Assembly (NCBI GenBank): GCA_963833985.1
Contig: CAWIAD010000001.1
Coordinates: 672,001-736,000, forward strand
Direction of reading: 5' to 3'
Origin: an uncultured Planctomycetaceae bacterium
Lineage (GTDB): Bacteria > Planctomycetota > Planctomycetia > Isosphaerales > Isosphaeraceae
Length of the DNA: 64,000 nucleotides
Shown: one piece after another, positions 10,048 through 32,389 of the stretch
How the letters are laid out: every line of letters starts with the position of its first letter
Numbering within the stretch: position 1 is the stretch's first letter
Made by a program: the position numbers and the translations under genes
Notes under the pieces: model-generated
Seen by the model: only the letters and a program-made list of their open reading frames with translations
Databases searched by the model: none
What the model was told of the DNA's origin: nothing

Positions 10048-13000
10048 CGGTGAGGCCGCGGAAAGTGATTCCATCGCCGATTCGCTCTCGATGTACGAGT
10101 AGCTTCAATGGGGCCGCGGCGGTGAGGCCGCGGAAAGCGATACACCGAGCCCCAGAGGGTGATTCTCCAGTGGAGCTTCAATGGGGCCGCGGCGGTGAGG
10201 CCGCGGAAAGCGCCGACAAGCAGCCGGTTCGACAGCGACGTCTACGGCTTCAATGGGGCCGCGGCGGTGAGGCCGCGGAAAGATTCTTGGCCCATCCTGA
10301 GCTGGTCAGCACGGTCGGCTTCAATGGGGCCGCGGCGGTGAGGCCGCGGAAAGATTCTTGGCCCATCCTGAGCTGGTCAGCACGGTCGGCTTCAATGGGG
10401 CCGCGGCGGTGAGGCCGCGGAAAGCAGGTGCCCTGGGCAACGCTCTGCACGAGCACGTTGTAGCTTCAATGGGGCCGCGGCGGTGAGGCCGCGGAAAGAC
10501 ATCCTCGGCCACGCGCTGAAGATCCTGATCAGCAGGCTTCAATGGGGCCGCGGCGGTGAGGCCGCGGAAAGTGAGCCGTGACGACGTGGTTGCCGACCTG
10601 GTCCGCACGGCTTCAATGGGGCCGCGGCGGTGAGGCCGCGGAAAGAGCGGTCATGATCCGGCTCGGCTACGACGACACAGCGCTTCAATGGGGCCGCGGC
10701 GGTGAGGCCGCGGAAAGTCCTGCGCGACCTGGCGGCCATCACGCACGGCACGCCGCTTCAATGGGGCCGCGGCGGTGAGGCCGCGGAAAGAGTCGGGTGT
10801 GGGCCGCTTCTTCAAGCGAGACCACGCGCTTCAATGGGGCCGCGGCGGTGAGGCCGCGGAAAGTATGTTGCCGTCAAAGCCCTACCTCCTTCCGCTTCAC
10901 GCTTCAATGGGGCCGCGGCGGTGAGGCCGCGGAAAGCCGTGCTGGATCGCCGTGGCGATCGCCTCCATTCCCTGCTTCAATGGGGCCGCGGCGGTGAGGC
11001 CGCGGAAAGCCGGGTATACCGCCGGCGGCAACACGCTCACGCTCGCCGCTTCAATGGGGCCGCGGCGGTGAGGCCGCGGAAAGCAGGGTGAAGCAGATCG
11101 GCGGTCCGGACGCTCCCTCGCTTCAATGGGGCCGCGGCGGTGAGGCCGCGGAAAGGGCATCAGAAAATCTCCTTCGCGTGCATACGTCGATTGCTTCAAT
11201 GGGGCCGCGGCGGTGAGGCCGCGGAAAGCGATGACCTTGGCGACGTCATCCCGGCAGTAGCCCGGCTTCAATGGGGCCGCGGCGGTGAGGCCGCGGAAAG
11301 ACGACCGGCGCGGAGCACTCGGGGCAGGGAGTGAAAGCTTCAATGGGGCCGCGGCGGTGAGGCCGCGGAAAGGGCATCTTGCGCATATCCACGTCCCGGC
11401 ATCAGTGATGCTTCAATGGGGCCGCGGCGGTGAGGCCGCGGAAAGCCAGCTTACGCCGGCGTAACAGGGGCCGGCCGCGACGCTTCAATGGGGCCGCGGC
11501 GGTGAGGCCGCGGAAAGCGGATTGGCCCACGTGGCACCAATGCACTCGTAAGAGCTTCAATGGGGCCGCGGCGGTGAGGCCGCGGAAAGCTGACCCCTTC
11601 GCCGCGCCATACCCGGGCGGACCTGGCTTCAATGGGGCCGCGGCGGTGAGGCCGCGGAAAGCCGGCTTGTCGCCTGTGCCGTAGTTCATCTCGATCCGCT
11701 TCAATGGGGCCGCGGCGGTGAGGCCGCGGAAAGAGTGGCCTGCACCGAACGCTGCCCGAGCACAGGCTGCTTCAATGGGGCCGCGGCGGTGAGGCCGCGG
11801 AAAGGGGCGGATGGCTGCGAAACCAGCGGCGGAGGAAATCGCTTCAATGGGGCCGCGGCGGTGAGGCCGCGGAAAGACGCTGTCACGAGACATGCGTGGC
11901 TCCGCGTGACTGGCTTCAATGGGGCCGCGGCGGTGAGGCCGCGGAAAGCTCTTGCTGTACGGTGGAATCAACGGGCTCCCTTAAAGGCTTCAATGGGGCC
12001 GCGGCGGTGAGGCCGCGGAAAGACAGCAAGGCCGCCCTGCGCGATCTACTGGGATTAGCTTCAATGGGGCCGCGGCGGTGAGGCCGCGGAAAGTTCAGAA
12101 CAAGGAGCGGACGGGGGAAACCAACCACAGAGCTTCAATGGGGCCGCGGCGGTGAGGCCGCGGAAAGAAGGGTTGCAGGGCAGCTCGGATCAGAACACCA
12201 CGGCTTCAATGGGGCCGCGGCGGTGAGGCCGCGGAAAGAACCAGGCCAAGGTGATGGCACGCGCGAGCCTGATCACGCTTCAATGGGGCCGCGGCGGTGA
12301 GGCCGCGGAAAGCCAGGGCGGTCGCGGCCTGTTCGGTCGCTGTCAGTAGCTTCAATGGGGCCGCGGCGGTGAGGCCGCGGAAAGGGGCCCCGACGAACAG
12401 GCCGAACAACGAGGCAGGGAGCTTCAATGGGGCCGCGGCGGTGAGGCCGCGGAAAGCCGCGGATCTGGTACTGCGTGTAGCCCGTGTTGTTGCTTCAATG
12501 GGGCCGCGGCGGTGAGGCCGCGGAAAGCCGCGTCGGGCCGGAAACCCAGTATTTCCCCAGTGAGCTTCAATGGGGCCGCGGCGGTGAGGCCGCGGAAAGA
12601 CACCCGGCGCATGTGCCCCCCGGCCCACTACTGGCCGGGCTTCAATGGGGCCGCGGCGGTGAGGCCGCGGAAAGAAAAACTGGTTGACCTGGCCCGCGCC
12701 GCTGCCGTTGGCGCTTCAATGGGGCCGCGGCGGTGAGGCCGCGGAAAGAAAAACTGGTTGACCTGGCCCGCGCCGCTGCCGTTGGCGCTTCAATGGGGCC
12801 GCGGCGGTGAGGCCGCGGAAAGCATGAATGCGGGATTGAAGGATGTGCCGATGGCCAAGGCTTCAATGGGGCCGCGGCGGTGAGGCCGCGGAAAGTTGGA
12901 CGGCAGGCCACGCAATTCGTGAGGCTGGTCAGGATGCTTCAATGGGGCCGCGGCGGTGAGGCCGCGGAAAGACATCGTCCTGGACTGGATGTTTCCCGGA

Positions 13001-16000: not shown

Positions 16001-17391
16001 CCGCGGAAAGCTCGCGCGCGTCTACCTCGTCGGCAAGTGAAGCATGGCTTCAATGGGGCCGCGGCGGTGAGGCCGCGGAAAGGACCGCGCGGCCGCCGAG
16101 AACCGCGATGTTTCGGACGTGCTTCAATGGGGCCGCGGCGGTGAGGCCGCGGAAAGACACGCGATCCATCGCCAGGTAATCATCGAGAAGCAGCTTCAAT
16201 GGGGCCGCGGCGGTGAGGCCGCGGAAAGCGGCGGCACAATCGCGACCCGCGCGGCGACGATTGCGCTTCAATGGGGCCGCGGCGGTGAGGCCGCGGAAAG
16301 AGCACCCGAATCAGAGATGATGCGCCAACACTCTTTGCTTCAATGGGGCCGCGGCGGTGAGGCCGCGGAAAGCCCCGCGACGGACCTGCTGCCCGACGTG
16401 CAGGGCCTCTGGCTTCAATGGGGCCGCGGCGGTGAGGCCGCGGAAAGTCATATCGCGCGATCGAGAGTCGGTTCCACGAAAAACGCTTCAATGGGGCCGC
16501 GGCGGTGAGGCCGCGGAAAGCCCCTGGCGCGACCCGGAGGCGTTCCGGGAGCGCCAGGCTTCAATGGGGCCGCGGCGGTGAGGCCGCGGAAAGTCCCCTC
16601 GAAGCAGCGCAGCTTCAGCCGCGTGCCAGCCGGCTTCAATGGGGCCGCGGCGGTGAGGCCGCGGAAAGACATCGCGTCCAGGACGCTCCAGATCCGGGAG
16701 CAACGCGCTTCAATGGGGCCGCGGCGGTGAGGCCGCGGAAAGGGGCCGGAGCAGTGCGTGTTGCCGCCGGGCCTGTAGCTTCAATGGGGCCGCGGCGGTG
16801 AGGCCGCGGAAAGCAACTTCCTGAGCGAGCTCAACGGGACGATCGATGTTGGCTTCAATGGGGCCGCGGCGGTGAGGCCGCGGAAAGTCATTCATCTCGG
16901 CGGATTAATTCCGCCCTCGTCTGCTTCAATGGGGCCGCGGCGGTGAGGCCGCGGAAAGCAAACGGTACGGCCAGCCGGCGGAAGGCGCCGCGCAGCTTCA
17001 ATGGGGCCGCGGCGGTGAGGCCGCGGAAAGCCGCCGTGTTCCTCGACCCGCCCTACGCCGATACGGCGCTTCAATGGGGCCGCGGCGGTGAGGCCGCGGA
17101 AAGGCTTTTGCTCTCGCGAAACGCGCTCATCAACGGCGTGCTTCAATGGGGCCGCGGCGGTGAGGCCGCGGAAAGCGCGCCGCGGATCGTGATCACCTCA
17201 TCCCAGTAGCCGCTTCAATGGGGCCGCGGCGGTGAGGCCGCGGAAAGAATAGGTTCCCCCTGAGCCGTCGCAGGCGATCGACTCGCTTCAATGGGGCCGC
17301 GGCGGTGAGGCCGCGGAAAGCGGCCGGCACCCTCGCCGAGCTGGTGGAAGAGGCGGCTTCAATGGGGCCGCGGCGGTGAGGCCGCGGAAAG
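10048..17391 (-). CRISPR. Type I-G (I-U) CRISPR array: 101 full 36-nt repeats plus one truncated trailer repeat; 101 spacers of 35-40 nt
   Basis: Repeat as transcribed CTTTCCGCGGCCTCACCGCCGCGGCCCCATTGAAGC (CCGCGGC/GCCGCGG stem, ATTGAAGC handle). Full repeats run 10102 to 17391 (manual count); half repeat at 10048-10065; one variant repeat (13449). Leader on the cas1 side. Confidence 0.99.
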
Positions 17392-17635
17392 AGCGGTCGC
17401 GTAAGTGCCGAATTGCCAAAGAGCTGCGAGCGGGTTTGCGAGCGGTGCCGGGTTTTCACGCCGCAAAAGTCGCCCAGGTCCACAAGCCGTCTCCCAAGTC
17501 ATGGTCAGGTAGCCACTTGCGTCTTGCGAGCGGTCCCCGGGGTTTTTCGCGCACCGCGCCGCTCGCGAACCGGGGCACGAAAAAGAAAAAGAGTCACCAG
17601 GTTCCCTGGCCATGGCGATCGCTGCCCCAACGGTC
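17392..17635 (-). promoter_or_regulatory. CRISPR leader
   Basis: Non-coding gap between the cas4-cas1 stop and the first repeat; repeated TGCGAGCGG motifs; opposite end from the degenerate trailer repeat. Confidence 0.8.
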
Positions 17636-19456
17636 CTAGCGCGTCACGAACACCGGGTACGAGGCGATCTCGCCGGTGAACAGCCGGGCCAGCAGCCGCG
17701 TCTGGATCTCCAGCATTCGCCGGTAATTGAGACGATAGCCGAACAGCGGGTGCGTCACAAGTGTGTCCATCCGCTGCTCGTACGCGCGGAAGAAGGCCTT
17801 CCTGCCGTCGGGCCGCAGCGCAACGGATTCCCCCGGCGCAGGAAGTCTCGCGGCGTGACCATCCGGGTATTGATCGCCGAGAGCACGGCCGAGTCCGCGA
17901 TCAGCGGCCGGAACGGCTCCATCAAGTCCAGCGCCAGGGCGCACGCCCGAACCGCGGCTGGTGATACACGCCCAGGAAGGGGTCGAACCCGACCGCGTGA
18001 CAGACGATGGTCAGGTCCTTGGCCAGCACGCTGTAGGCCAGCGACAGCATGGCGTTGACCGGGTCTTTCGGCGGCCGCCGGTTGCGATGGGTGAAGTCGA
18101 ACGAGAAGCCCCCGCCCGCTGCCGCGCCGGCACCGGCGCCCGCCCCGGCACCGGCGTTACTGCTGGCGTTCTCCGGTTCGTCGCCGGGCTCGCCGGTCTT
18201 GATCATGCCGGGGAAGAGCTCGAAGTAGATCCGCGCGGCGTTGCCTTCCAGGCCCAGGAGCTGCTGCGTCGACGCCGCGTTCTCGGCGTCATCGCACAGG
18301 GTCTTGAGCTGGGCGATCTTGCCGGCCGGGGGCTCGACGTGGTTGCGCTGGAGCATGGTCCGCTGGTTGCGGATCTTGCCGGCCACCAGCGTGCGCGAGA
18401 GCCGGAGCCGGAACTCGGGGTCTTCCGCCAGGCGGAACTGCTCGCGCCGCAGCGCGATGTTGCGCACGCCCAGCCCGTGTGTGGTCCCGTAGAACCAGCC
18501 GCCCTGGGAAAAGTAGCAGACGGGGACCTCGTTTTCACACAACGCCTGGAGCGCCTGGGTGGTGAGCTGGATGTTGCCGAACAGGCTCACCTGGCAGGTC
18601 TCACCGATGCGCACCTCCTGCACGACGGTGTCTTTTTCTTTCACCTTCAGCACGTTGCCCGACTTGCCGACGTGCAGACCCTGTGTGTTCAGATACAGCG
18701 GCCGCAGGTCGTCCCGCGCGGCGACCATCCGGCGCGGCTCAGCATCAACATCGCCGGCGGCAGCGGGGGCAGGACCATCGCCGGTTGCCGGCGGTGCGTT
18801 CGGCTCCCCGGCGGAGGCGGCCTCCTGGAGATAAAGCGTCTCGTCGGGCAGGCAGATGCCGACGAGCGAGCAGCGCGGGCACTTGGGGCTATCGGCCAGC
18901 GGCGCGGGGATGCGGCCGGCCACGGCCGCGGCGCGGGCCTGGGCAAGCGCCTGGAGCGTTTGCTCGACGAGGTTCTCGTCGATCGGCACGCGGACCCTTT
19001 GCCTGGTCTTGACGTAATAGACGACGCCCTCCTCGCAGGCATAACCGTTGTCCCTGAGCACCAGGGCTTGAACGGCGATCTGAACGCGGTCAGGGTCCCA
19101 GGCGCGGAGCTCGCCGGTCTCACCGTCCTTGAACGGCGCCCGCGCTTGTAATCGACGGGGGTGGCCGTGGCGCCTTCGGCCTCGACGACGTCGATGGTGG
19201 CGATGAGCCGGTGGGTCTCGCTGGAGAGCGTGACCGAGCGGGAGTGGACGCGCTGGTCTTCCGGCAACTCCTCGGCGGGCGCCAGCTCGTCGGAGCGGGC
19301 ATCGAGTTTGGCGTGCCTCAGCGCGCCCTCGACGGTTTCTTGATTGTGGGCGAAGACGCTTTCGACCCATTCATAGTAGAAGAGGCGTGGGCAGTAGACA
19401 TATTCGTTGAGCATGCGCGCGGGGAGGTAGTCGGGGAGTTCTTCAAGGAGCGGCAT
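17636..19456 (-). CDS. cas1: Cas4-Cas1 fusion (about three apparent frameshifts near 19140, 17940, 17835)
   Basis: Cas4: [38 protein letters not shown]. Cas1: [57 protein letters not shown]. Confidence 0.93.
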
Positions 19457-19488
19457 GAGGGTCTCCAATGGGAGAAGCTGTTCCGGCG

Positions 19489-19779
19489 TCAGACAACGAC
19501 GCAGGGCGCGTTGATGGGCGAATAGGGCTGGCCGAGCGCGGTGATCACGCGTTCGCCGCGGCCCTCGGTTGGCCCGAGGTCGACGAAGAGGACCTGGTCC
19601 TGCTCGTGGTGGATGATCTCGCTGAGGACGAACCGGCAGGTGGCCAGGTCGATGGGCGTGAACTGGCACTCGAAGATCGAGTACTGCAAGTGGTCGCCGA
19701 AATCGCGCATGGCCTTGAAGACCTTGCGCAGCCGCTTGTCATCGCGGATGTCATAGCAGACGAGGAAGGTGTTGCGCAT
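19489..19779 (-). CDS. cas2: CRISPR-associated endonuclease Cas2
   Basis: FLVCYDIRDDKRLRKV...LQYSIFEC...DQVLFVDLGP. Confidence 0.95.
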   Translation of the reverse strand: MRNTFLVCYDIRDDKRLRKVFKAMRDFGDHLQYSIFECQFTPIDLATCRFVLSEIIHHEQDQVLFVDLGPTEGRGERVITALGQPYSPINAPCVVV

Positions 19780-19811
19780 TGCAGATACGCTCCATCCAGA
19801 GGCGCTTCCGG

Positions 19812-21374
19812 TTAGCCGTGATTGCTTGGGGTGAAGAGGCCCAGGCCGAAGTGGCACGAATGACCCAAGGCGATCGGCCCAGAAACCGGGGCTGGGAACC
19901 GGATGCGGAACACGCCGCGTTGGCGCTGGTTTCCGTCATCCCCGCGCTTACGCCGTGTAAGCTGGAACTCGATCGCACGCAGCCTAGAGTTGCTGACGTA
20001 TTCAAGGGGATCGATCTCCGCTGCGCCGAGTCCACGCCGGTCGAGTTCCTCAAGCAGAACCTGGGCGACAAACGCGCGCCGGCCTTCCGGGCCCTGAAAG
20101 AACTCCTTCGGGTCGCGCTTCCGCCCCCGGCGCTTGGGATGGCGCGTCACGACGAACGGAGTGGCGGATTCCCAGAGACTCGACTTCTCCAGTAGCGCCG
20201 CCCGAAAATCCTCGTGGACGCCGAGGCCAACGAGTTGCACTCGCAGCTTGAGCGACTCGTCAACGAGCCTGAGCGTGCGAAGAGAATTCAGAGCGGCTAC
20301 CTCATCAGTTCCGAAGCCGTCAGCGGCTGCGGCAGTGACGTGCGTGATTCGTCGCGGATCGACGCCCTCGGCAGTAGGCAGGTAGAACGCATGTCGATGG
20401 CCCTGGAGGAATTGCCCTTCCGCATCTTTCCCTGAGAGTACTTCGGATCGGAACAACTCTCGGTCTGGCTCATGCACGGGGCCGTAGCGCTGAAGATGTC
20501 GGTGTCGTTGATACCGGCTCATCAGACCGCACCGGAAGGCCTCGGCCACGCGGATCGAGTTGGTAACGAGCGGCAGGACGGGCCCGTCAAGCAGGAAACG
20601 AGCGAGCGTTGGCGTTTGCTGGTTGCGCGAGCGAGGTTTCGCCGCGACGGGTCCGGCTTCCACCGGCCGGCTGTAGTTCACCCATCGCGCACCGGGAACG
20701 CTGGACCACCTCTCTTCGTGGATCGTTTCGGTGTCCAGGCAGAGGTGCCAGCGAGGGCAGTCGAATAGATAGTGGGAAGGGCTAATCTTTCCCCTGGCCA
20801 GTTTCGTGCGGTCGAGCACCGGGTAGTGTTGGTCGTTGAACGCAGCCGCTGGATCAGGACACAACACGGGGACGGGACTCGGGTCAGACACCTCAGCGGG
20901 CCCAAGGTTCAATTCGACCGTGGCGTCGGTCAGTTCGGCGTGAGCCCAGCCCTCCGCTCGGCCCAAGTAGGAGAGGTTAGCGAGAAGTTTTGAGAGGACC
21001 TCGCGGTCGCCGTCACACAGTTCGGCATTTGGCCATCCCACGAACAGCGGTTCGCGGCGATCGACGGTGACGAACGTGTCGAACACAAGGGTTCGGTCGG
21101 CCGGTCCCTTTTTCTCCCATGGCATGTAGTGTCGGGTGTGAGCGACGCGGAATGGCGGCAGACGGAACAGCGGTGGGTGCGCCAGAGGTTCGAGAATTCG
21201 GCGGACCTGGGATTCGGAGTAGTCCGGACAGGTCCTTCTCCACACGGCGATCAGCGCCCGCAGCAGCCGCCAAGGGGACGGCGGCCACTCGGGCACGCCC
21301 TCGTTCACGTGCCGGCCCCACGGTGTCGCGTGATATCGGCCACTCGGAAATGCGAGCTTGATAATCACAGGCAT
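19812..21374 (-). CDS. csb2: Type I-G Csb2 (Cas5-Cas6 fusion)
   Basis: GRYHATPWGRHVNEG.PEWPPSPWRLLRAL, LSYLGRAE, C-terminal G-rich loop GPIALGHSCHFGLGLF. Confidence 0.93.
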   Translation of the reverse strand: MPVIIKLAFPSGRYHATPWGRHVNEGVPEWPPSPWRLLRALIAVWRRTCPDYSESQVRRILEPLAHPPLFRLPPFRVAHTRHYMPWEKKGPADRTLVFDTFVTVDRREPLFVGWPNAELCDGDREVLSKLLANLSYLGRAEGWAHAELTDATVELNLGPAEVSDPSPVPVLCPDPAAAFNDQHYPVLDRTKLARGKISPSHYLFDCPRWHLCLDTETIHEERWSSVPGARWVNYSRPVEAGPVAAKPRSRNQQTPTLARFLLDGPVLPLVTNSIRVAEAFRCGLMSRYQRHRHLQRYGPVHEPDRELFRSEVLSGKDAEGQFLQGHRHAFYLPTAEGVDPRRITHVTAAAADGFGTDEVAALNSLRTLRLVDESLKLRVQLVGLGVHEDFRAALLEKSSLWESATPFVVTRHPKRRGRKRDPKEFFQGPEGRRAFVAQVLLEELDRRGLGAAEIDPLEYVSNSRLRAIEFQLTRRKRGDDGNQRQRGVFRIRFPAPVSGPIALGHSCHFGLGLFTPSNHG

Positions 21375-21389
21375 GGGTTAATCCTCGCC

Positions 21390-22583
21390 CTATGGCTTGT
21401 TCCACGTCAGTTGCGTCACTCTCGGCTCAGCAAATTGAGGGCTGCATTTCTTCATCAGGTCGCCGAGGTCACTCGTCAGCTCCGTGGTTGAAGGCAGTAA
21501 GAATCCCTCCGGTCGCGTGATGCGAATGGATTTGTCGTCCTTCAGCTCCAGCTCACAGGCCGTCCTCAACCGCATGTTCGAGTCGAGGAAACGCCGGACC
21601 TTCCAGAGCGATAGCACGATCAGTAGATTCACAGCGTTCTCGCCCAAGCCGTATCCGCGAATCTGTGCGAGGTCGAGACTGAAAAACGCGGTGATGGACT
21701 TGGCGGTGAATTCCGTGCGGTGGAAAGGAACGTTACCGTAGCCGCTCTTGGCATCCACTCCGGCCACACTCGGTTTGGGCAGGGCACGGTCGAACTTGAC
21801 CCCACCGCTGTCTGCCCGACCGACGCCACTCGCCTCGATGAACGAGGAGAGAGCCCGTGGGTGCCTCAGCCGGCCCGCGATCTTTTCAAGAAACACTCCA
21901 TGAACCAGGGAGTTTGGGTCGTACTTGAAGCAAACCGCGGCAAGCCTACGGAGGTTGACCACGCCGGCCACGTCGTCGCGGTCTGTGTCACCTGTACCAG
22001 CAGCCTCTTCCGTTGCGGGCTGGGTTGTCGCGCCCCGGCGACCTTGCGAGCGGCGAGCGGGCGCCGCTACCACGGCCATGCCCAGTTCCGGCTTGAGAAC
22101 GTCCGAGAAACTGGTTCCAGTTGGGATCTCCACCTCCTCGTCATCCCCGGACCCTGACCTACTGAGTTTAACGGTGACCTTTCGCTCGGTCGCTCCGTTC
22201 ATGATGTAAGGCGAATTGAGACGGTGGAACTCAAGTATGCTGCAAGTGGTGTCGGTACCGTTACCGAGACCGGCGAGATTCACCTTGACGTAAGGAATCC
22301 CCGGCGCCTTCGTCGCTGCCCTGCTCTCGGCGCCGTTGACTTCAACCATCAGGTCGGCGACAAGATTATCGTTTGCTTCATCCCAGCACACGGATTCAAG
22401 TCGGTTGGCCATTGACTGGGCGGACTCGACCAACAGCATGGAGTTGCCGTCCGGCGCGTCGTACGTGGCCGGGCCAAGGTCCGGAAAGCCGGTTGGCTGG
22501 ATACGCGTGCCCGCCACGGGTTTAAGCGCGGCTTCGATCAGAATGCGTGGCTTGTCTTGAAGTCCCCTGAAGTCTGTGAACAT
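21390..22583 (-). CDS. csb1: Type I-G Csb1 (Cas7 backbone)
   Basis: RIQPTGFPDLG, LLVESAQSMANRLE, HRLNSPYI, DPNSLVHGVF, GNVPFHR, LRTACEL. Confidence 0.93.
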   Translation of the reverse strand: MFTDFRGLQDKPRILIEAALKPVAGTRIQPTGFPDLGPATYDAPDGNSMLLVESAQSMANRLESVCWDEANDNLVADLMVEVNGAESRAATKAPGIPYVKVNLAGLGNGTDTTCSILEFHRLNSPYIMNGATERKVTVKLSRSGSGDDEEVEIPTGTSFSDVLKPELGMAVVAAPARRSQGRRGATTQPATEEAAGTGDTDRDDVAGVVNLRRLAAVCFKYDPNSLVHGVFLEKIAGRLRHPRALSSFIEASGVGRADSGGVKFDRALPKPSVAGVDAKSGYGNVPFHRTEFTAKSITAFFSLDLAQIRGYGLGENAVNLLIVLSLWKVRRFLDSNMRLRTACELELKDDKSIRITRPEGFLLPSTTELTSDLGDLMKKCSPQFAEPRVTQLTWNKP

Positions 22584-22585
22584 GG

Positions 22586-24800
22586 TTACTCCTCGATCTC
22601 GGGTGGATAGAGAACGGCGTTCGCAATTGTCTCGAGGTCACGGTAGGAGAGCGGAAACAGCATTGCCGCGAGTAGCCGCTCGGCCGGGATAGCGGACTCT
22701 ACGGCCAGCGACCGCCGAGCCATTTGGCGGTTCCGGAATCCATGCACGAGTCGGCCGCTGGATTTCAGCCGTCGGGCCGCACGATCGACGCACCTCCCGA
22801 CCGCATCGGGCTGACCTGTGGCGAGGATGTGAAATACACTGGGATCGGGCTTGGCCTCTGGATCTTCACCGACACAGATCTTCCAACCGTCGCTGGAGGC
22901 GTCGATTACCCGCGGTTCGACGAGCAGCCGGGGCACGCCAAACTCGAATGGCACCTCCCCGTCTCCGCTCGGCAATTCGAAGGCGACAGCGGACCAATCG
23001 ACAGCCGACAAGCCCCAGGTGAGGTCGTCCACTTTGGCGTCGTCGATTTCGTACCGAAGGAATGCGACAACATCTCCCAGCCTCGCTGGGCGGGGCGAGT
23101 AGAGTGGTACCCCTGCCCGCCCCCAGGTCTCGGGATCTCGGAACGCTTCCATCAATCGGCGGCGAAAGACGGCGCCAAGATTGGCATGAAGCGGTCGTTT
23201 CAGCCACACCGCAGACGTACTGCCCGGGGACCAGCTGACGGATTTGGTCGCCTCAACTTCTTCAAGGTAGGCGCGCAGTGGACCGACATGGCCGTGTGCC
23301 TGAATACCCGCGAGACTTGTTGCGAGTCGAAACTCCGGGCTGAGGTCGTTCGCCTGTGCAAGCCATCCGTTGTCCAACATCTGAAGCGGACGGAGATACT
23401 TGTCCTTGCAGAAGGCCAGCCCGTTCGCGAGTGTCCGCTCCGCGCTGACCGAGAGCACGCAGCACCTCAACCAGGAACTTCGCGTCGTCGCCCTTTTCGC
23501 TTCGACTTGCAAACCTGTAGATTGCTCCGTCGACCTGTCGCAGCGTAGTCTGGTAGCGGGCTGGGGTCCTATCCTTATCCCGGCAGGCGATGCGAAGACG
23601 GTCAAGCCACTCCCAAAGCCGAGGATCGTTGAGCAGCCGAGCGTGCGGACGGAGTGTCACTGCGACACGTCCGAGAGGCGCCGCCAGAAATGCCAGCCCA
23701 TTTCGCTTCAGGAACCCATAGCGCGCGAAGGAATCCAACCCGCTCCCAACCCCCAGCAGGTTGACGGCCAAGGCGAACTCGATCGCATTTTGAGCCTGTC
23801 GCCGTCCGAGCTGAGCGCGACCTTCTGCAAACAGGTGTTCGATCTCCCCGAACCCCGCCGGCTCACGCCACAACGGCAGCCACAACTCGGACCGCGAGGC
23901 GTCGGTGGTTTCTTCGGTAGCTGCCGCGGACCCATACCCGACCGCGACCGAAAGGACACTGAACGGGAACACGGCCCGTCCAGGACTGTTGGCCCCGAGC
24001 CTACCAGGACTGTTGGCCCCGAGCCTGCGGGCGACAGAGCCGGCGAATAGCAACGCCCCTTCAATCATCAGCACGAAGTCCCAGGGGTTCACTCGCGAGT
24101 CGGCTTCGAACTTCCCTTGAGTGCCGTTTGCTCCGCCGATTCCGCCTGGATTGAACTGACCAATCGATGTCCTTCCCAACTCGACCATGTTGTCCGCGAA
24201 CAACGCGGCAGCGAGGCTTTGTTGCGAGTCGGACGTGGGTTGTGTGCCTGTAGCAAACGGAATGACGTCAGCCAACCGCTGCATAAAGTTGTTGGTAAAG
24301 TCGAGCCGGCCGTCGTTACCGCCTGTGCCAAGGAGTGGGAAGAAGCTCGGACCATCCTCTCCCAGTACAAAGCAGACATCGAGCCAGGGAACGACCTCGT
24401 CGGCGAGCTCAGAGCGGCAGCGAACGAGGAGTGATTCCTTCGCTTCACCCTTGGGCTTGGTTTTTGGAGCAAACGCGCGGATACGGCCGATGGTCTCGCG
24501 ATACAAAGTGAGCCGTTCGGCCGTTGATTGAGCGATGGCGTCGAGCGGATCGGCTCCGCCTCCGTAGAACCCGCTCCCTCCGTTCCAGGGCGCAGTAATC
24601 GGGGTCGGGCGGTATTGCTCGAGGAAGAACTGCGTTAGCCCCTCGCGGCCAAGCTGACCGTGCAGGTGAGCAATCCCGCCTGACCAGGAAAGGCGTGCGT
24701 CCGGGTCGCCCTGCTCGGCAACCAATCGGAACACCCCGAGTGTCTTCAAGTAACCCATGAGAGGCTCTGGCGTGCAGCCCGTGAGTGCAACCTCAGCCAT
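22586..24800 (-). CDS. csx17: Type I-G large subunit Csx17/Cas8g (apparent frameshift near 23445)
   Basis: LTGCTPEPLMGYLKTLGVFRLVAEQ.D, PWNGGSGFY, PLLGTGGNDGRLDFTNNFM, NPWDFVLMIEG, ELWLPLW, EFRLA.SLA; start overlaps cas3 stop. Confidence 0.9.
23980..24026. repeat. 23-bp direct repeat with 24-bp period inside csx17
   Basis: CCAGGACTGTTGGCCCCGAGCCT at 23980-24002 and 24004-24026; gives RLGANSPG twice in frame. Confidence 0.9.
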
Positions 24801-27182
24801 TCCCGGCCTCCTTTCGGCTTGCCCGCGCATCGGCCGCGCGCAGGAGCGCTTCTAGGTACGCCAGCTTGAATGGTCCGAGATCCGCCAGGAGTTTCAGCGC
24901 CTGGGCAGTCCAACTGCCGTCTCCGCCCAATTGCATCGGCGACAGGTCCAGGACTGTGGCAGGACACATCTCCCCGCCACCGAGATCAACCTCGGGCATC
25001 TGATCGCCGTCGCGAACGCCAAGGGCGAAACGAATCACTGTGTCAGTCGGCGGTTCCTCGCCAGGAAGCGCCCGGATCACCAGTCGCACTCGGCCGTGGT
25101 GGGCGGCGATCAGGTAGGCTACGGCGAACGGCCAATCCTCAAGGTTTTGCAGTACGGCCAAGGCCGAGCCGAGTTCATGTCGGAATTGTTTCCGACCGTA
25201 ATTCCCGTAGTTCAGTCGACCTCTGCGACCGGATTTGGCAAGCAACCTGGATGGGTCAGGGTTCTCAGGTTCATACATTGCCTTCTGCGAAACCGGAAGC
25301 GCCTTTCCAACGTCGTGCCATTGAGCGGCTCTCACGAGTTGACTTTGCCATCCGTCAAGCCATTTGCCTAGTTGGTTGCATATTCCGGACATTTCATAGC
25401 AGACGTGCTGGGTGTGCTCTTCAATGGTCAGGGCAACCGGAATGGTCGATTTGGGATCAGAATTGACGGCTTCCTCGTTCACTTTTTCTTTCGGTGGTAG
25501 CGGCGTTACTGTCTCCTTGCTTTCTTCATCCCAACCTCTTCCGGTCGCCGACACAGTGTCCCAGTCATAGCCACCAGCCGTAACCGGCAACAGTATCGTC
25601 AGACCGGGCCGGATTTCATGTTTAGGGTCGCGCACTTGCCGCCACCGGTCATCGAGGTAGTCCCAGACGAAACCTTGGACCTTCTCCTTGTTCAGGAACG
25701 CCTTGATGCTTCCGACGGGCACGTTGCACAGTTCCCGTCGCACTGGCGACACCTCCCAACTTTCTGCCGTTATGTCTCGCCAGAAGACTTGGACGTCGCT
25801 GTCCGGGTCATCGCCACGGACGAACCTCTGGATGTCGATATCGTTTCCGGACAGATCTGGTGCTGTGTCAAACAGATCGAGCAGGTCCTTGCGGCGAAGG
25901 ACGTGAGTGTGCATGAAAGGTAGCGTGATGGATCGATCTCGTTTGAAGTCGTCGAGAGCCCTTGGAGACACATCACATCCACCGAGGGCAACCAACTGCT
26001 CGCGAGCGAACGCAAGGGCGACCGGCTCGTACGGGGCCGCTCGCTTCTCGGTGTCTAGGTCGATCCAGAAGACGCGTCCGGGTGCATCATCGCCCGTGCG
26101 GTTACATCGGCCGATGCGCTGCACGACGCTAGCCCAGGGAGCCAGTTCCGTAATCAACGTGCGGGCGGAGATGTCCACTCCAGCCTCGACGACCTGCGTG
26201 GCTACAATGATTCGGTCCGATTTCTCGTTCGTAAGCTTGTCGTTCAGGATTTGCCGCTCGGCAGGGCGAAATCGTGAGTGGATGAGCAAGACATCTTTTG
26301 GAGCAGCCATGTCTTTCTTGATGGCTGCGTACAAATCATTCGCTCTCGCAACTGTGTTCATCACAACGAGAGTCTGCGTACCGGCCACGTGGTGCCTTAC
26401 GACCTGGTGCGAAACTTCCTTCCCATCCGCGGTCGGGTTAACCATCAAGGGCTCGAGCTTTTTCTCCGCCGTCATCCGCTTGTAAAGGGATCTCTTCGGG
26501 TCGTAATCATCATCGGATAATTCCAGCGCCCCATGAGGAAACCGACCAGCAAAATCAATCGTATCGAGCCATTCCGGCTCCAGCGTGGCTGACATCCAGA
26601 CCGACGTGCAGGAGCCGGAGGTGCCCAGCGCGGCTCGTAACCCCGCCAATTGTGCGGATGTCGATACACCAGCGCCCATGAGCTGAGGTTCGTCAAAAAC
26701 CCATACGCAATCGTTGTTCAGCATGCCGAAGTCGATTGGCCAGTGGAACCGACTGGCGGAATACCCGCGATTGAGTGCACGGGACAACAGCATGTCCTGC
26801 GTGCCAATCAAGATCGCTGGTCTCTCTGGGTGCAAGTACCAGTCAGCCGTGTCCACGCCTCCCATCAACACGTGGACCTCTACCGCATCGACCTCTCGGC
26901 CCATATTACTGATCCAGCCGCGAGCCGCCCTTTCTGACTGCTCCACGAGGACTCGCATCGGTAAGCAGTAGACTAGCCGTCTCGGTGTCGGCTTGCCGCT
27001 GTGGAAAAATCGCCACAACCACCCGAGGACTGCCGTAGCAGTCTTCCCGGCTCCGGTGGCGCGCGAACGAGATGCGGGGTCGCATCCGCCTCAGCGAAAC
27101 GCTGCTGGTATGGGAAGGGCATCCGTCCATGTGGCTCGGAGTCGGATCGCGTCGCCTGTTTGAAAAAATCCAAGTAAGTCAT
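24793..27182 (-). CDS. cas3: Type I-G Cas3 (N-terminal SF2 helicase, C-terminal HD nuclease; 1-nt frameshift near 27058)
   Basis: PFPYQ, AP(T)GAGKT restored across the indel, RRLVYCLPMRVLVEQ, DEPQ, MSATL, ATQVVEAGVD, QRIGRCNR; HD domain WHDVGKA, FRHE, AAHHG, LRAAD. Confidence 0.94.
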
Positions 27183-27408
27183 GAGTCATCTCGCAAGGAT
27201 TCTACCAGGGCGTCGTAAGGCTAATCTTGTCGCTTCACGTGCGCGGTTCCACATGAAAGCATGTATGATGTAATTCTGTTACCCCGCAAGTTTTTGATGG
27301 ACGCAATGTACCGAGCGTGAGTGGCCCTGCCGTTCGCCTGAACTATGGTCTCGGACGCAAGGGCAGAGGCTCTGGGGCTGTGGTCGTCCGGGATCGAAGG
27401 GCGGTTCG

Positions 27409-27618
27409 TCAACGGCGAGGCAAACGTTGTCGCTTCCGAAGGTTTAGCAATCGCCGGAGTACCTGCTCCTCATCGGCCTCGACTCTCCGTTGGCGTAGCA
27501 TTTCTAGGAAGCGGTTACGTAGGGTAGGATTAACGAGAATCGTGTCCGCGGATGCGCCGGTTCCGTCCCGGAAGGAGGTGTAGGTCGAAACAAGCTGTTC
27601 ATCATCGAGTGGTTGCAT
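27409..27618 (-). CDS. Small basic 69-aa hypothetical protein heading the cas operon
   Basis: GAGGAGG RBS 6 nt before ATG; sigma70-like promoter upstream; helical, Arg-rich C-terminus RRLLNLRKRQRLPRR. Confidence 0.7.
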   Translation of the reverse strand: MQPLDDEQLVSTYTSFRDGTGASADTILVNPTLRNRFLEMLRQRRVEADEEQVLRRLLNLRKRQRLPRR

Positions 27619-27630
27619 GGCAAGCCTCCT

Positions 27631-27653
27631 CAATCACTTTTCCGTTCTAGTAA
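27631..27653 (-). promoter_or_regulatory. Putative Cascade binding site (TTA PAM plus partial protospacer) for the crRNA-like guide
   Basis: Minus strand TTA|CTAGAACGGAAAAGTGATTG versus spacer CTAGACCGGCAAAGTGACTG: 17/20, mismatches at 6, 10, 18. Confidence 0.75.
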
Positions 27654-27664
27654 ACAACAACTAG

Positions 27665-27694
27665 AGTTTAGTCGCGCACCATTCGCAGCGTCAA
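27665..27694 (-). promoter_or_regulatory. sigma70-like promoter for the 69-aa ORF/cas operon
   Basis: TTGACG (27694-27689), 18-nt spacer, TAAACT (27670-27665); predicted TSS about 27658. Confidence 0.65.
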
Positions 27695-27713
27695 CACCCC
27701 AAAATGTGAACGT

Positions 27714-27822
27714 CCACTTTTCGCCTCGGGTGCGTGGCCCCATTGAAGTCTAGACCGGCAAAGTGACTGTACCCGAGAGGGTCTACACCCCACGGCCCAA
27801 CTGGCCGTGGCCCCATTAGTGA
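27714..27822 (+). ncRNA. CRISPR-like RNA (degenerate repeat - spacer - degenerate repeat mini-array)
   Basis: PsiR1 27714-27749 ends GTGGCCCCATTGAAGT; 36-nt spacer 27750-27785; PsiR2 27786-27822 CACCCCACGGCC-CAACT-GGCCGTGG-CCCCATTAGTGA with compensated stem. Confidence 0.8.
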
Positions 27823-27855
27823 ATAAGCCATGCCATGGACGCATAGTTCCTGGCA

Positions 27856-28863
27856 TCATGAGCCCGGAGTGCATGAAGAAACCTCGTTTCGGTAGTTCCC
27901 GGCCATGGCGCTCGCGTCGGCCTGGACCATCGCGGCGAGCTCTTCGGGTTCCAACACCTTGCAGTCGGGGCCCCAGTACATCACCCAGCGCTTCAGCTCG
28001 CGCAGGTCGTTGACCACGAGACGAAGGACCAAGGCGCCGTCGTCCTGCGGCTCGACGACCTGGCTGGAGTGCCATTGCTTCTCGCGGATCCGGCCGGCAT
28101 GGGCGGGCGTGAATCGAAGCGCGACCTGATACTGGCCGTCGCCCCGGATCGTGCCGAAGCTGGCCGCCATGTAGTCCCTGACCTGGAAGTCCGGCGGGCG
28201 GACGAACGAGGCTCCCGTCTCCTCGGCCGAGCGCAGCGCGCTGCACCTTGAAAAAACGGATCTCGCTGCGCAGGTGGCAAAAACCGATCAAACACCAGTC
28301 GTCGTCGGCCGCCAGGGCCAGGGCGTACGGGTCCACCTCCCTGCTCGCGACGGAGTTCCGGGCCGCCGTCCAGTAAACCATGCGCACCCGGCGTGACTGC
28401 TGGACGGCCGCGACCAGGATGCGAAAGACGCCGGGATCGTAGGACGTCTGAACCCGCGGCAGCACGTCGAGACAACCTGACAGGTCCTCCAGGGACACCT
28501 CGACCTGCTCGGGAAGGCTCCGGGCGATCTTCTTCAGCGCCTGCCTCAGGTCGTGCTCGAACGGCGTACCACGATACAGGTTCATCACCTGGGCCGAGAT
28601 CAACAGCGCCACCAGCTCGCCGCGCGTTGCCGCGAAGTACGAGAGTCTGTAGGACGAATCCGCGTAAAAATAGCCGTTCCGCGCCTATCAAATTCCAGAG
28701 GGGCGCGCAGGCGGTTGCGCATGAACTCGATGTCCCGCTGGACTGTCCGGGCCGAGACCTCCATCATCCGTCCCAGGGTCCGGGCGTTGGGATACTCGCG
28801 GCCCAGAACGGCCGAGTCGATCACCTGGACCCGTTCGATCGGGGGTCTCGTCGATCCGCGCAT
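27856..28863 (-). CDS. HTH-WYL-WCX transcriptional regulator (several apparent frameshifts)
   Basis: HTH YPNARTLGRMMEVSARTVQRDIEFMR; WYL REVDPYAL...WCLIGFCHLRSEIRFFKVQR; WCX IREKQWHSSQ...WVMYWGPDCKVLEPEEL; split over three frames. Confidence 0.88.
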
Positions 28864-29904
28864 TGTCGACGCTTCCTGTTCCAGCTTGCTCTGCCAGTTC
28901 GCGCTCGCCGCTCGCTGAACGGCCGTTGACGCAAGGCCCCGCGTCTGCCTTCATCGTAGCGGGGGGGGTGCGACAACGATGGTCGTGGCAAGAAAAAATC
29001 AAAGTAAGAATGTCCTGGTCTGCGTGTGCGTGCGGCGGGACGAGGCCGCACCCCCGCCGGCTCGAGCCGGTGCCTCTTCACTCGGATCAACGACGAACTG
29101 TACGCAAGACCAGATCGCACCGTATCACGCGCAGCGGTGAGTGTCAACAACCATGGAGCAAGGGCAACTGGCGGAGGCGGACGGCACGAGTTCAAGAAAA
29201 TGGGAGATTTTGGAAAAAAACCTCAAGGGAGGCAGATCGTTCGGTCGCGGGTAGCGGATGCTAGTAGATAGGGGGCATTCTCAGCGCGGGCAGGGCCGCG
29301 CGGCGTGAACCGCGGAAGATCGACGAGAATGCCCGCAGCTTGATCCGTGGTCAGAACGGGTGGCGGCATCCAGAGCTGCACGAAAAACACGGAGCGAAGC
29401 CAATTTTCATGATCTACATAACTCTTACGCCATAAGGACTTACGTCATGAAATTGGGTTCCGCGACGATCGGGAACGAACCCAATTTCGCGACGGGAAGT
29501 GCCGGGCTGGGCCGCCGCACGGTCCGCATGCGCTCGATGAGTATGCCGGCAGGACCGGCGGTCCCGAGGAGGCGGAACACGATCAAGTGGGCCTGGAAAG
29601 AAGAGATCAACCCAGACGCCGCCGGGCGCATGCAATCACGGTGCCGACCGCGACCGGGAAAGTAATCAAGGAGTACTACAAGGAACAGCCCACGGGACCG
29701 CACGCCGGTGATGTCTTGCAGCCGATTCGCCCGCTTCCACAAGGCCCCACCATCTCCACCGCCGGGGAAGGCTCGCAAACGGCGCCCCCGGTCCGCGCGG
29801 CCACGGCGCCCCTTGATATGTCAAAGGACGAGATATGTCAAAGGCCGAGCTGGAGCGCGCTTCGACAGCTCCGCCTGAGTTGATCATCCCGAAGGAGCCA
29901 TTGA

Positions 29905-30075
29905 ATGAGCAGCGCGGCCCTCACCTCGTCAGCGGTTCACCGGCCAGCGGTCAACCCCTGGCTCGTTGCCACAGCCGTGGTCGTGCCCACGTTCATGGAG
30001 TTCCTGGACATCACGGTCTACGTTACCTCCCTGCGGTACATCGCCGGCGGGCTGTCGGCTACGGAGGTCGATTGA
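29905..30075 (+). pseudogene. N-terminal fragment of a DHA2/EmrB-type MFS efflux permease
   Basis: AAGGAG RBS; MSSAALTSSAVHRPAVNPWLVATAVVVPTFMEFLDITVYVTSLRYIAGGLSATEVD* then stop, 2 nt before the MITE-like element. Confidence 0.7.
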
Positions 30076-30077
30076 GC

Positions 30078-30190
30078 CTAAATAGCTCCCCGTAAGAGGG
30101 AAAGTGTGGAACGGCCGCCCTCGGCCGTCCTGAGCCAGCCGAGGGCGGCTGGCCCACATTCCACATTCCAAGAGGCGAGGATCTATTTAG
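30078..30190. mobile_element. MITE/REPIN-like element, copy 1 (113 bp)
   Basis: Ends CTAAATAG...CTATTTAG; internal palindrome GCCGCCCTCGGC...GCCGAGGGCGGC; near-identical to 47457-47562. Confidence 0.8.
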
Positions 30191-30866
30191 CGCTTTCCGC
30201 GGACACGGTAGCGCACTGGACGCTGGTGTCCAGTTTACCAGGGCCGGTGCTCTCGACAAGCGTGACGTACGCGAACGCCGAATGAGCCGGCTGCGGGTGT
30301 CTCGTGGTCGTCGCTTGCGGAGTCGCGCGGCCCCGGTCCGGTGCTTGCAAACCTGTGTCTGCCGGGCGCGTCACCGGGAGTGCCAGGAATGAAGCGGCTC
30401 ATGTGATGGCCAACACAGCGGCAATATGAATTGAATTTCACGCAATACAGTGTCCATTGCCATTCACATCTTGCAGGATTCTTCATGAAGTCGCCTTGCG
30501 CTTTGCGGCTCTGCTCACGGCGGAAAGCTCGTTTTCAGCACTCTTCTCTGGCTGGAGGAGCGGTCGAAGCTCGAGCTTCGTTGAATTGGTACGGCGGTTG
30601 CTTGACCACGTGCTCGAACTGCCCGGACACCGCAGGTGGACGTTTTCCATCAGCGCCAGCCTGGGAAGCAAAGACTGCCCGCGTGGAACGACAGCCGGGT
30701 GTCGTATGCCAGTGCACACCGACAGGGGCCGTCTTTGAGTTGATCGTGCACCCAAGAACATGCAGCCCGCGACCTGGCACACGGAAATGCACAGGTCGAT
30801 CGTGCAGGAAAACGTGGCAGGTTTGCGCGACCGAAACATTGACGAATTCCAATGGAGCGAACACTC

Positions 30867-31379
30867 ATGAATCGCAACCGCAAGAGGCAGAATCGGTTTC
30901 CGGATTTCGAGGCGCTCGAAGGCCGCCTGGCTTTGAGCGCGGGCATGGGGCTGGGAGTGGCAGAGGGACTGGTGTCCCATCACTCCCATGCTCTGATCAC
31001 GACTCCCGTCGTGCACAGGGTGCCAGTCTCCTTCAGAGGGCACGTGTCAATCAGTGGGTCGACGGTCACGACAAGCCTGACGGGGACGATCGGCAGGGAC
31101 CACTTCACGGGCCACGGCAATGGAACGGCATCGGGAACGCTCTTCGAAGGCGGCGATGTCTACCTGAGCAACAGCAGGGGCAGTGTCACCTTGCAGCTCA
31201 GCCCCGTCTCCGTGACGCACTTCGGCAGGCGTACAAGGCAAACGGTCGCCGTCGTCGCCCTCGAGTCCACTGGTAAATATGCTGGCTACCAGGGAAGCAC
31301 CGGGACACTGACGAGCTGGAATATCCGTGCAACGCCCAGCGCGACGTCGACCTTCAGGGGTGTGTTCAACATCGCTTGA
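30867..31379 (+). CDS. Hypothetical planctomycete extracellular protein
   Basis: Basic N-terminus followed by FEALEGRLALS (LEPR-XLL-like motif); Gly/Thr-rich beta-type body. Confidence 0.7.
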   Translation: MNRNRKRQNRFPDFEALEGRLALSAGMGLGVAEGLVSHHSHALITTPVVHRVPVSFRGHVSISGSTVTTSLTGTIGRDHFTGHGNGTASGTLFEGGDVYLSNSRGSVTLQLSPVSVTHFGRRTRQTVAVVALESTGKYAGYQGSTGTLTSWNIRATPSATSTFRGVFNIA

Positions 31380-31535
31380 TCGCGCCGGGCCGCGGTGCGG
31401 ATGACGCCGCCGGAACTGCAAGAGCGTGTCACTTCCGGATGAGGTAGAGGCTGTCTCGGGTACGAACCCCCGCAACTCGGCCTCGAGCGGGAGCAGGCAC
31501 CTCGGGATCGCCATGCGCCTCGGAGGCTGAGCCGC

Positions 31536-32389
31536 TCACCGCATGATCCGGGGTTCGAGCCAGCGAGCCAGGTCATCGAAGACCTGCTGGCGGCCGAGCT
31601 CGTTGAACGGTTCATGGAGCATCCTGGGGTAGAGCAGGAACGTCTTGTCGTCTGATCCCAGCCGGTCAAAGAAATCCCGGTTGGACTGCGGGCTGACCAC
31701 AGGGTCCTGGCCGCCGATGAGCATGAGGATCGGCAACTTGATTTCGGCCGCCCGAGCCAGCAGCATCTCGCCTCCTTCCACCATCCCGAAGAAAAGCGGC
31801 GCGCTGATGCGGTTGTGCCGCAGGCCGTCGGACCGGTACATCTGCTGCATCACCGGGTCGCGGGTCATCCATGCACTGGGTGCATCGGCACGCAGGGTGA
31901 TCCAGGGTGCCAGAGAGAGCAGCACCTTGCCGAGTTTCAGCTTGGCGGGGGCCACAGGCATGGCGATCCGGATCGAGGGGTTGGAGGCGATCAGTCCCAC
32001 CGCGCCGGTGGCACCCTCGAGCGCCAGGCGAAGCACCACCTGACCGCCATTGGAATGCCCGAGCAGGAACAGCGGCACGCCAGGCCGACGGCCGGCCGCC
32101 CAGGCCACGGCCGAACGGAGGTCGTCGACCAGGTCCTCGTAGCGGCGGACCACCCCGCGCGGCCCGAGCTCTGCCCGTGGCCGCGAAAGTCGAGGGCGAC
32201 GAAATCGATCTGGAGCGCGGGACCGATCGCCTCTGCAACCGGCGCATAGGCGCCGCTGTGCTCGCCCAGGCCGTGCGCCACCACCACCATGCCGCGGGGC
32301 CGCGGGACGGACCACCAGCGGGCTTTCAGGTGCACTCCGCCATGCGACGGCAACGAGAACTGACTGACATCGCCGTGTGAAACCGACAT
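31536..32389 (-). CDS. Alpha/beta hydrolase, lysophospholipase/monoglyceride lipase-like (frameshift near 32165)
   Basis: HGLGEHSGAY, DFRGHGQS, nucleophile GHSNGG, GGQDPVV, HEPFNE. Confidence 0.88.

Follow-up and report, generated by a model that had tools for sequence, protein, structure and literature searches.

Why should a type I-G CRISPR–Cas locus (clusters of regularly interspaced short palindromic repeats and the associated proteins) carry, beside its cas genes and on the opposite strand, a single spacer enclosed by two degenerate copies of its own repeat? The question is raised by a 64,000-nucleotide (nt) stretch, here called the window, of the genome of an uncultured Planctomycetaceae bacterium (assembly GCA_963833985.1, contig CAWIAD010000001.1, positions 672,001 to 736,000 of the forward strand; G000:C1:672001-736000), a genome of 10.16 Mb and 65% GC in two contigs. 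A degenerate repeat, a 36-nt spacer and a second degenerate repeat occupy positions 27714–27822 of its + strand, opposite to the strand of the array and the cas genes. A sequence-only reading had reported this unit and proposed that it yields a CRISPR RNA (crRNA)-like guide steering type I-G Cascade (CRISPR-associated complex for antiviral defence) to the start of the complex's own operon. The answer reached here is that the unit is probably a mini-CRISPR of the CreR (Cas-regulating RNA) type, through which Cascade would repress its own cas operon; judging from the sequence comparisons below, we put the probability of this at roughly 0.8. The elements on which the argument turns are the following.

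10103 to 17392, − strand: CRISPR array of 101 repeats, the sole array in the window, with the unit CTTTCCGCGGCCTCACCGCCGCGGCCCCATTGAAGC.
27714 to 27749, + strand: first degenerate repeat (psiR1), ending in GTGGCCCCATTGAAGT; a weak hairpin (−6.9 kcal/mol), CCC and an 8-nt handle, ATTGAAGT.
27750 to 27785, + strand: psi-spacer of 36 nt; nt 1–20 form the guide seed region, nt 21–36 are unmatched.
27786 to 27822, + strand: second degenerate repeat (psiR2); an 8-bp hairpin, CCCC and a decayed handle, ATTAGTGA.
27694 to 27665, − strand: sigma-70-like promoter TTGACG-18-TAAACT, pointing to the 69-aa open reading frame (ORF) and cas3g.
27651 to 27653, − strand: protospacer adjacent motif (PAM) TTA, adjoining the target.
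27631 to 27650, − strand (the strand with guide sense): protospacer-like target, 17/20 identical to spacer nt 1–20.
27625 to 27631, − strand: ribosome-binding site GAGGAGG of the 69-aa ORF, abutting the protospacer.
27409 to 27618, − strand: the 69-aa ORF (P0001), with its ATG at 27618, first gene downstream of the targeted promoter.
27639 to 27667, + strand: weak candidate promoter of the mini-array, TTTCCG-17-TAGAGT (7/12, from a low-threshold scan).

The unit is built from the repeat of its own locus, next to the cas genes, just as the sequence-only reading had described it. The array repeats (n = 101) are practically identical to one another, and the canonical repeat folds into a 7-bp hairpin at positions 5–24 (−14.4 kcal/mol) followed by 12 nt, CCCC plus AUUGAAGC. 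When the repeat-tail 13-mer GGCCCCATTGAAG was sought with up to two mismatches, the window returned 102 matches, of which 101 lie in the array on the − strand and one at 27736–27748 on the + strand; 2.33 are expected by chance. The psiR2 hairpin (−15.8 kcal/mol, equalled in stability by 4/200 shuffles) stands in a register identical to that of the canonical repeat hairpin, and the tail behind it has decayed to CCCCATTAGTGA. Rfam has no match in window positions 27000–28000. Three further observations touch the unit and its repeat. A 15-nt direct repeat, 13/15 identical and 91 nt apart, occurs at 27687–27701 and 27778–27792 (AGCGTCAACACCCCA and AGGGTCTACACCCCA), so that the stretch before psiR1 resembles the junction of spacer and psiR2 and is perhaps the trace of an older third unit. 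The psiR1 hairpin region (CCTCGGGTGC, 27723–27732) is complementary to spacer nt 20–31 (GTACCCGAGAGG, 27769–27780) and forms an alternative helix in a 141-nt fold. Finally, on contig C2 (about 2303000–2303086, − strand) a fragment consisting of the last 22 nt of a repeat, a 37-nt spacer and the first 13 nt of a repeat runs from hairpin loop to hairpin loop; apart from the array, no other place in the genome has the 16-nt repeat tail in exact form, and the fragment directly follows an ORF that, judged by eye, resembles a truncated PIN/VapC-type gene.

The spacer points back at its own locus. Recomputation returned the reported match exactly: nt 1–20 agree with the − strand at 27650–27631 in 17 of 20 positions, the mismatches falling at spacer positions 6, 10 and 18, while nt 21–36 agree in only 2/16. 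The TTA directly before the site conforms to TTN, the PAM of a type I-G system in the accessible text of Shangguan et al. (PMC9638904). Across both strands of the 10.16-Mb genome, the spacer 20-mer has a counterpart with three or fewer mismatches only at this target and at one site on contig 2, and when the spacer was shuffled 300 times, the 1.4-kb neighbourhood never offered 17/20 next to a TTN. The target's placement between promoter and ribosome-binding site also held up, the promoter being the sole sigma-70-like site that the scan finds in 27000–28000; its −10 box ends 11 nt before the PAM, and the match begins 14 nt past the −10 and extends to the ribosome-binding site. The complementarity is thus partial, PAM-proximal and directed at a cas promoter region. 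The spacer is of mRNA sense, which leaves the template strand of the DNA as its only possible partner, a point that the sequence-only reading had also made. The candidate promoter on the + strand, which a stricter scan of 27000–28000 does not pick up, has a −10 that overlaps the −10 of the cas-directed promoter and a −35 inside the protospacer; speculatively, then, two −10 boxes would lie back to back, with the mini-array's own −35 within the protospacer.

The comparison with related loci supplies what we regard as the decisive evidence, so far as sequences can decide. A Cas3g search of genome contigs returned only two distant loci, and a genome search was used instead; it found Cas3g in 17 of 121 genomes of the order, and 21 loci from the retrieved neighbourhoods were scanned for the repeat tail at a threshold of two or fewer mismatches in 12 nt. 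Six of the 21 carry an isolated group of repeats just upstream of cas3g on the opposite strand (G027, G086, G133, G083, G079 and G048), with three repeats each in G027 and G083. A search with the 69-aa ORF family added three more, in G099, in G069 and in a duplicated module of G086. The total comes to ten mini-arrays beside I-G cas genes in nine genomes, namely that of the window and nine others in eight related genomes, and each of them runs on the other strand from cas3g or the small ORF. Their spacers are unrelated in sequence. Nevertheless, nine of the ten, the window's included, have an ungapped match of 13–17/20 in their own neighbourhood, beside TTA, TTC, TTG or TTT; the tenth (G069, L051) needs a 1-nt bulge to match its own locus. 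Most targets are 58–106 nt from the spacer on the opposite strand, that of G133 being 422 nt away on the same strand, and among the nine ungapped pairs the window's 17/20 shares the top score with L037 (G133). In a 7×7 cross-locus control, spacers scored 13–17 against their own loci and 9–13 against foreign ones, and shuffled spacers reached the observed score in 0/300 trials in five loci and in 3/300 in G027 and in G048. Spacer and target therefore co-vary among homologous I-G loci, an outcome that the sequence-only reading had named as a check on itself.

A further argument is how close the targets lie to promoters. In five of seven loci scanned, a sigma-70-like promoter to cas3g overlaps the protospacer or lies within about 35 nt of it; near the protospacers of the other two, G133 and G083, no sigma-70-like promoter reached the threshold. 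The target of G086 begins 22 nt past the −10 and covers the ORF start codon, the PAM of G079 overlaps the −10, and the target of G048 overlaps the −35. In G027, which has the mini-array and the target without any small ORF, the target borders on the −35 of a TTGACA-16-TATGAT promoter that precedes cas3g itself. Several side observations belong to these relatives. A terminator is visible by eye after the mini-array of G048. In G033, an upstream 30-nt inverted repeat with hairpins was considered as a mini-array and rejected by eye for want of a handle. The second module of G086 (L053, C2:1575267-1578452) lies far from the cas locus and comprises a cas2 3′ end, the mini-array, the promoter with its target, the small ORF and the first 21 codons of cas3g, which are then interrupted by what looks by eye like an IS3-type transposase gene; its spacer is identical to that of the first copy, and its target, having drifted, now matches at 15/20, position 4 of the seed being among the mismatches. 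By eye, about 50 nt upstream of the cas3g start codon resemble the G086 cas2 3′ end (L036 and L053 in G086, L008 in G027), as if the module of mini-array and ORF had been inserted between a once-adjacent cas2 and cas3g.

The positions at which the pairs fail to match follow a pattern. Mismatches were scored over eight independent pairs, the G086 duplicate having been dropped; the pairs are not fully independent given the kinship of the genomes. Positions 1–5 and 7–9 show no mismatch in any of the eight, whereas position 6 is mismatched in 5/8, position 12 in 5/8 and position 18 in 7/8. Pooled, positions 6 and 12 account for 10 mismatches in 16 cells, compared with 11 in 120 at the other positions from 1 to 17 (Fisher p = 4e-6). 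In type I Cascades, every sixth guide base is flipped out and left unpaired in the Cas7 backbone, and the 6/12/18 pattern is therefore what would be expected of a guide held in that backbone; it is unforeseen by models of a protein operator or an RNA hairpin. The perfect seed, the concentration of mismatches at 6/12/18 and the covarying relatives together argue for guide-directed Cascade binding as the sequence-only reading had supposed.

A second signature lies in how the repeats have decayed. The heptamer ATTGAAG is kept in all ten first repeats and in only one of the ten last repeats. The last repeats instead form strong hairpins (mean −12.6 kcal/mol), with stems that differ from one another yet remain mutually complementary, and nearly every mini-array repeat has exactly 4 nt (CCCC) between hairpin and handle. 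With the handle kept in the first repeats and the hairpin in the last, each repeat has preserved only the part that would stay in a mature guide. According to the accessible text of Shangguan et al. (PMC9638904), Csb2 is the repeat-cleaving enzyme of I-G, and its cut in the 36-nt repeat falls 4 nt 3′ of where the hairpin ends at its base and leaves an 8-nt 5′ handle; the repeat anatomy and its asymmetric decay fit such processing, insofar as sequence can speak to it.

The anatomy of the unit, its non-randomness and its conservation with co-varying spacers and targets are established at the level of sequence; the remaining steps, which we infer, would run as follows. Transcription of the mini-array would proceed along the + strand, diverging from that of the cas operon, and Csb2 would cut 4 nt 3′ of each hairpin to release a guide of about 73 nt composed of AUUGAAGU, the 36-nt spacer and the psiR2 hairpin. 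The psiR1 handle would thereby become the 5′ handle of the guide, and psiR2 its 3′ hairpin, held by Csb2. Loaded into type I-G Cascade (Cas8g, Cas7g and Csb2), the guide would have the complex read the TTA PAM at 27653–27651 and form, with the template strand, a partial R-loop of some 20 bp that lies a short way past the −10 box and extends as far as the ribosome-binding site. Such an R-loop would block transcription of an operon whose first gene is the 69-aa ORF, followed by cas3g, cas8g, cas7g and csb2. With nt 21–36 left unpaired, the R-loop should fail to reach full length, and no Cas3 cut should ensue. The result would be negative feedback, in which a shortage of free Cascade complexes, whether through competition by crRNAs or through anti-CRISPRs, would lead to more cas transcription.

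Several findings weigh against this account. Only the weak + strand promoter (7/12) precedes psiR1, and no terminator is predicted after psiR2 in the scan of 27000–28000. The psiR1 hairpin is the second weakest among the ten first repeats and ends 3, not 4, nt before the handle. A gap of 226 nt separates the small ORF from cas3g, so that their co-transcription is assumed. In 15 of the 21 related loci no mini-array was detected upstream of cas3g at the threshold used, which more degenerate copies may escape; the element is therefore not universal. Another objection concerns the cas genes themselves, which lie on the − strand beside the array and are arranged, together with a neighbouring regulator gene, as follows.

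27856 to 28612, − strand: WYL-WCX regulator gene, upstream of the cas operon and ending just past psiR2.
24793 to 27182, − strand: cas3g, with a frame break near 27042–27057; its start is at 27182, versus 27018 in the ORF list.
22586 to 24893, − strand: cas8g/csx17, with a frame break near 23444.
21390 to 22583, − strand: csb1/cas7g, intact.
19812 to 21374, − strand: csb2 (a Cas5-Cas6 fusion), intact.
19489 to 19857, − strand: cas2, intact.
17636 to 19438, − strand: cas4g/cas1g fusion, with three frame breaks (about 19130–19142, 17940 and 17830–17839).

The assignment to type I-G is carried by NCBIfam TIGR02621 (676 bits), TIGR04113, TIGR02570, TIGR02165 and NF049935, along with Pfam. Set against their intact counterparts from G027 and G086, cas3g, cas8g and cas4/cas1 show five frame breaks between them, and the regulator gene has at least one more, its WYL and WCX domains (Pfam) lying in different frames. 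At least 11 flanking genes, by contrast, have full-length Pfam matches (for example trigger factor, a class II aminoacyl-tRNA synthetase, LarA, PSCyt2-PSD1 and DUF1501), so the breaks are concentrated in the I-G island. The island may be decaying, or the stretch may be locally misassembled; unless the breaks are local assembly errors, the Cascade that the mechanism requires may be defective in the source genome, and the guide may be idle today.

This last thought can be pressed into an explanation in its own right, which is the most resilient of the alternatives: the unit evolved as a CreR, the I-G system is being lost, no Cascade forms any longer, and the guide–target pair has simply not yet eroded. 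As to origin, this is compatible with the CreR reading, and we hold it to be a real possibility, at somewhat worse than even odds. Beyond the contrast between five broken frames (and a broken WYL regulator) and full-length flanking genes, it draws on signs that the island is of a kind that can be lost. The GC content of the cas island (17400–29000) is 56–63%, compared with 64.6% for the window; GC at third codon positions (GC3) is 0.66 in cas3g and 0.56 in the small ORF, compared with 0.82 in trigger factor; and a search of 13 further genomes from the genus turned up no Cas3g. Given the low GC and GC3 and this restricted occurrence, the I-G island looks horizontally acquired. Against the picture of a dying system stand the 101 practically identical repeats, the intact state of cas7g, csb2 and cas2, and a 17/20 match that no other ungapped pair surpasses, and the breaks themselves may be errors of a two-contig assembly.

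The next alternative shifts the emphasis from cas3g to the 69-aa ORF. It supposes a Cascade-repressed cargo module similar to CreTA and CrePA, in which the ORF encodes a toxin or abortive-infection trigger that is freed once Cascade disappears or anti-CRISPRs inhibit it, with control of cas3g a secondary matter. The ORF deserves this attention, as it comes first after the targeted promoter, behind a strong GAGGAGG site, and belongs to a family of eight homologues at 58–78% identity with 32 invariant columns and a typical length of 69 aa; judged by these homologues, it is a real gene, conserved at the protein level. Six of the seven stand-alone copies lie beside a divergent mini-array (those of the window, G086 twice, G083, G099 and G069, but not L052), and G083 and G099, two loci whose cas genes have decayed, carry a broken ORF. 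In G094 and G100 (L054/L056) the domain is fused C-terminal to a TIR-like domain (TIR_2, E = 2.7e-5, below the cut-off). A further observation, made by eye, is that the domain occurs twice at the N-terminus of larger proteins in G072 and G005 (L055/L057) with a GIY-YIG-looking motif, for which Pfam has no match. This recurrence suggests a binding or sensor module reused in defence proteins. Closely tied as it is to such mini-arrays, the ORF could be a regulated cargo and not a bystander.

Other properties of the ORF sit poorly with a toxin. G027 retains mini-array and target without it, and the window copy is intact despite frame-broken cas8g and cas3g, which, if the breaks are real, is hard to square with a lethal product. 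No family was found for it in Pfam (E ≤ 0.01), NCBIfam, PADLOC or PHROG, and the KilAC domain is thus not among its matches. The AlphaFold model has four helices (pLDDT 82.7); Foldseek against the PDB gave no match at E ≤ 0.001, and a wide VIA-align search reached Z up to 6.0, mostly with winged-helix DNA-binding domains, too weak to name the fold. The ESM Atlas holds only unnamed planctomycete clusters. Under the CreR reading, the ORF would be the first gene of the regulated operon and would possibly encode a DNA-binding co-regulator.

The published examples of such modules, CreTA of Haloarcula hispanica (I-B) and CrePA of Acinetobacter baylyi (I-F), sharpen the comparison. In the accessible text of both sources, a crRNA-like RNA directs Cascade to the promoter of a small gene within the cas locus, and in CrePA the repressed gene encodes a small protein, as it would here (PMC12737573, 10.1101/2024.01.05.574328). 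CreT, however, is there an RNA toxin in which a strong ribosome-binding site precedes tandem rare codons, by which a tRNA is sequestered (PMC12737573, 10.1101/2024.01.05.574328), whereas the window ORF has GAGGAGG without any tandem rare codons after its ATG; CreP is a 103-aa KilAC-domain protein (10.1101/2024.01.05.574328), a domain that the ORF lacks at the Pfam threshold above; and the window, unlike these modules, has cas3g downstream of the same promoter. As for a coupled toxin gene, whose absence sets CreR apart from CreTA and CrePA, the window has a conserved 69-aa ORF under the targeted promoter and G027 has no copy of it. On balance, we consider a cargo module of this kind distinctly unlikely.

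Two relatives nevertheless hold other small genes in the slot that the ORF occupies, which counts in favour of a cargo. In G079 (L047), a tRNA-like gene stands at 3053–3155 on the + strand, between the mini-array target and cas3g; it scores 45.3 bits against the Rfam tRNA model (gathering threshold 29) and is missed by ARAGORN, which likewise reports no tRNAs in window positions 17000–32000. The gene has a class-II-like D arm, a 33-nt variable region, an anticodon loop UUUGGAA (UGG, proline), a G discriminator and, in the T loop, a C at position 55. G080 has no more than the 3′ half, upstream of cas3g, and the gene appears nowhere else in the 121 genomes of the order; it could be the cargo of the repressed promoter or a remnant of an integration site. 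In G133 (L037), a 49-aa hydrophobic ORF (MAWLSGHLKFPAWAIILLGVMLVAF...) occupies 2487–2636 of the − strand, directly upstream of the mini-array and on its strand, and the spacer's 17/20 match (PAM TTC) falls just upstream of a promoter-like site for that ORF, in its promoter region; the layout resembles a CreTA/CrePA module. One may then picture, at the 5′ end of the interference operon, a slot for exchangeable cargo that Cascade represses and to which the planctomycete I-G mini-array, besides throttling cas, supplies the antidote half. The 69-aa protein would be a new cargo (a toxin, an abortive-infection trigger or a second-layer regulator released when Cascade is disabled), and the slots of relatives would hold the class-II-like tRNA (UGG) or the 49-aa peptide. 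The G079 tRNA would mistranslate, provided that it is charged in the manner of tRNA-Ser. This broader proposal, too, is unlikely to be correct.

The remaining alternative, a chance or non-CRISPR inverted repeat (operator half-sites for a WYL protein, or an RNA hairpin) beside the relic of an inverted array, can appeal to two 20-nt arms that are 85% complementary and 99 nt apart and to the adjacent WYL regulator gene, but it is very improbable indeed, as it predicts neither a TTN beside the arm in 9/9 ungapped pairs, nor the mismatches at 6/12/18 and the asymmetric repeat decay, nor an arm that always begins exactly at the repeat–spacer boundary, and the fold of 27700–27840 is not unusually stable (z = −1.04).

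The CreR reading finds its closest precedent in the work of Liu et al. (bioRxiv 10.1101/2023.03.10.532045), where effectors repress themselves through a degenerate mini-CRISPR. In the accessible text of that preprint the element has the same organization as here: a psiR-psiS-psiR unit beside the cas genes, with a spacer partly complementary to a cas promoter next to a cognate PAM. According to the legend of its Fig. S7, a manual search also uncovered creA-like elements in I-U (= I-G), whose targets border the effector-gene promoter. The experiments described concern I-B, I-E and V-A, not I-G; moreover, the promoter in the window heads an operon that starts with the 69-aa ORF and cas3g, not with cas8. 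The regulatory cr-like mini-arrays of Shmakov et al. (PMC10120712) are likewise comparable, as two repeat-like sequences flank a spacer with partial complementarity to cas promoters or cargo genes and the elements are conserved in related loci. They are called common in I-B, I-E and I-F1, with I-F1 as the tested case; the searchable text contains no I-G example, and the CAS-I-G row of a table gives 235 loci with a mini-array fraction of 0.04 (PMC10120712). More distantly, the tracr-L of Streptococcus pyogenes (II-A) also achieves autorepression through a short (11-bp) complementarity to the effector's own promoter, but it belongs to class 2 and derives from the tracrRNA instead of from a mini-array processed by a Cas6-like enzyme (PMC10120712, in the text accessible to us). 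A literature search for a CreR study in I-G/I-U yielded only the sentence in the CreR preprint and the table row just cited, in the accessible portions of these sources; Fig. S7 of the preprint may detail an I-U example.

The class of mechanism is thus already published, for I-B, I-E, I-F and V-A, and the general picture of CreR and cr-like mini-arrays is unchanged. What the planctomycete loci would add is an extension of CreR-type self-regulation to I-G, which has received less study than any other type I subtype, and the comparative evidence for it is unusually clean. The guide–target pairs would translate into predictions for the I-G Cascade, regarding its seed rules and the minimal pairing that allows binding without Cas3 attack, and these natural guide–operator pairs would be usable for I-G-based CRISPR interference (CRISPRi). 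The tight linkage of the mini-arrays with an uncharacterised 69-aa family, finally, hints at an extra layer of control or at a new cargo.

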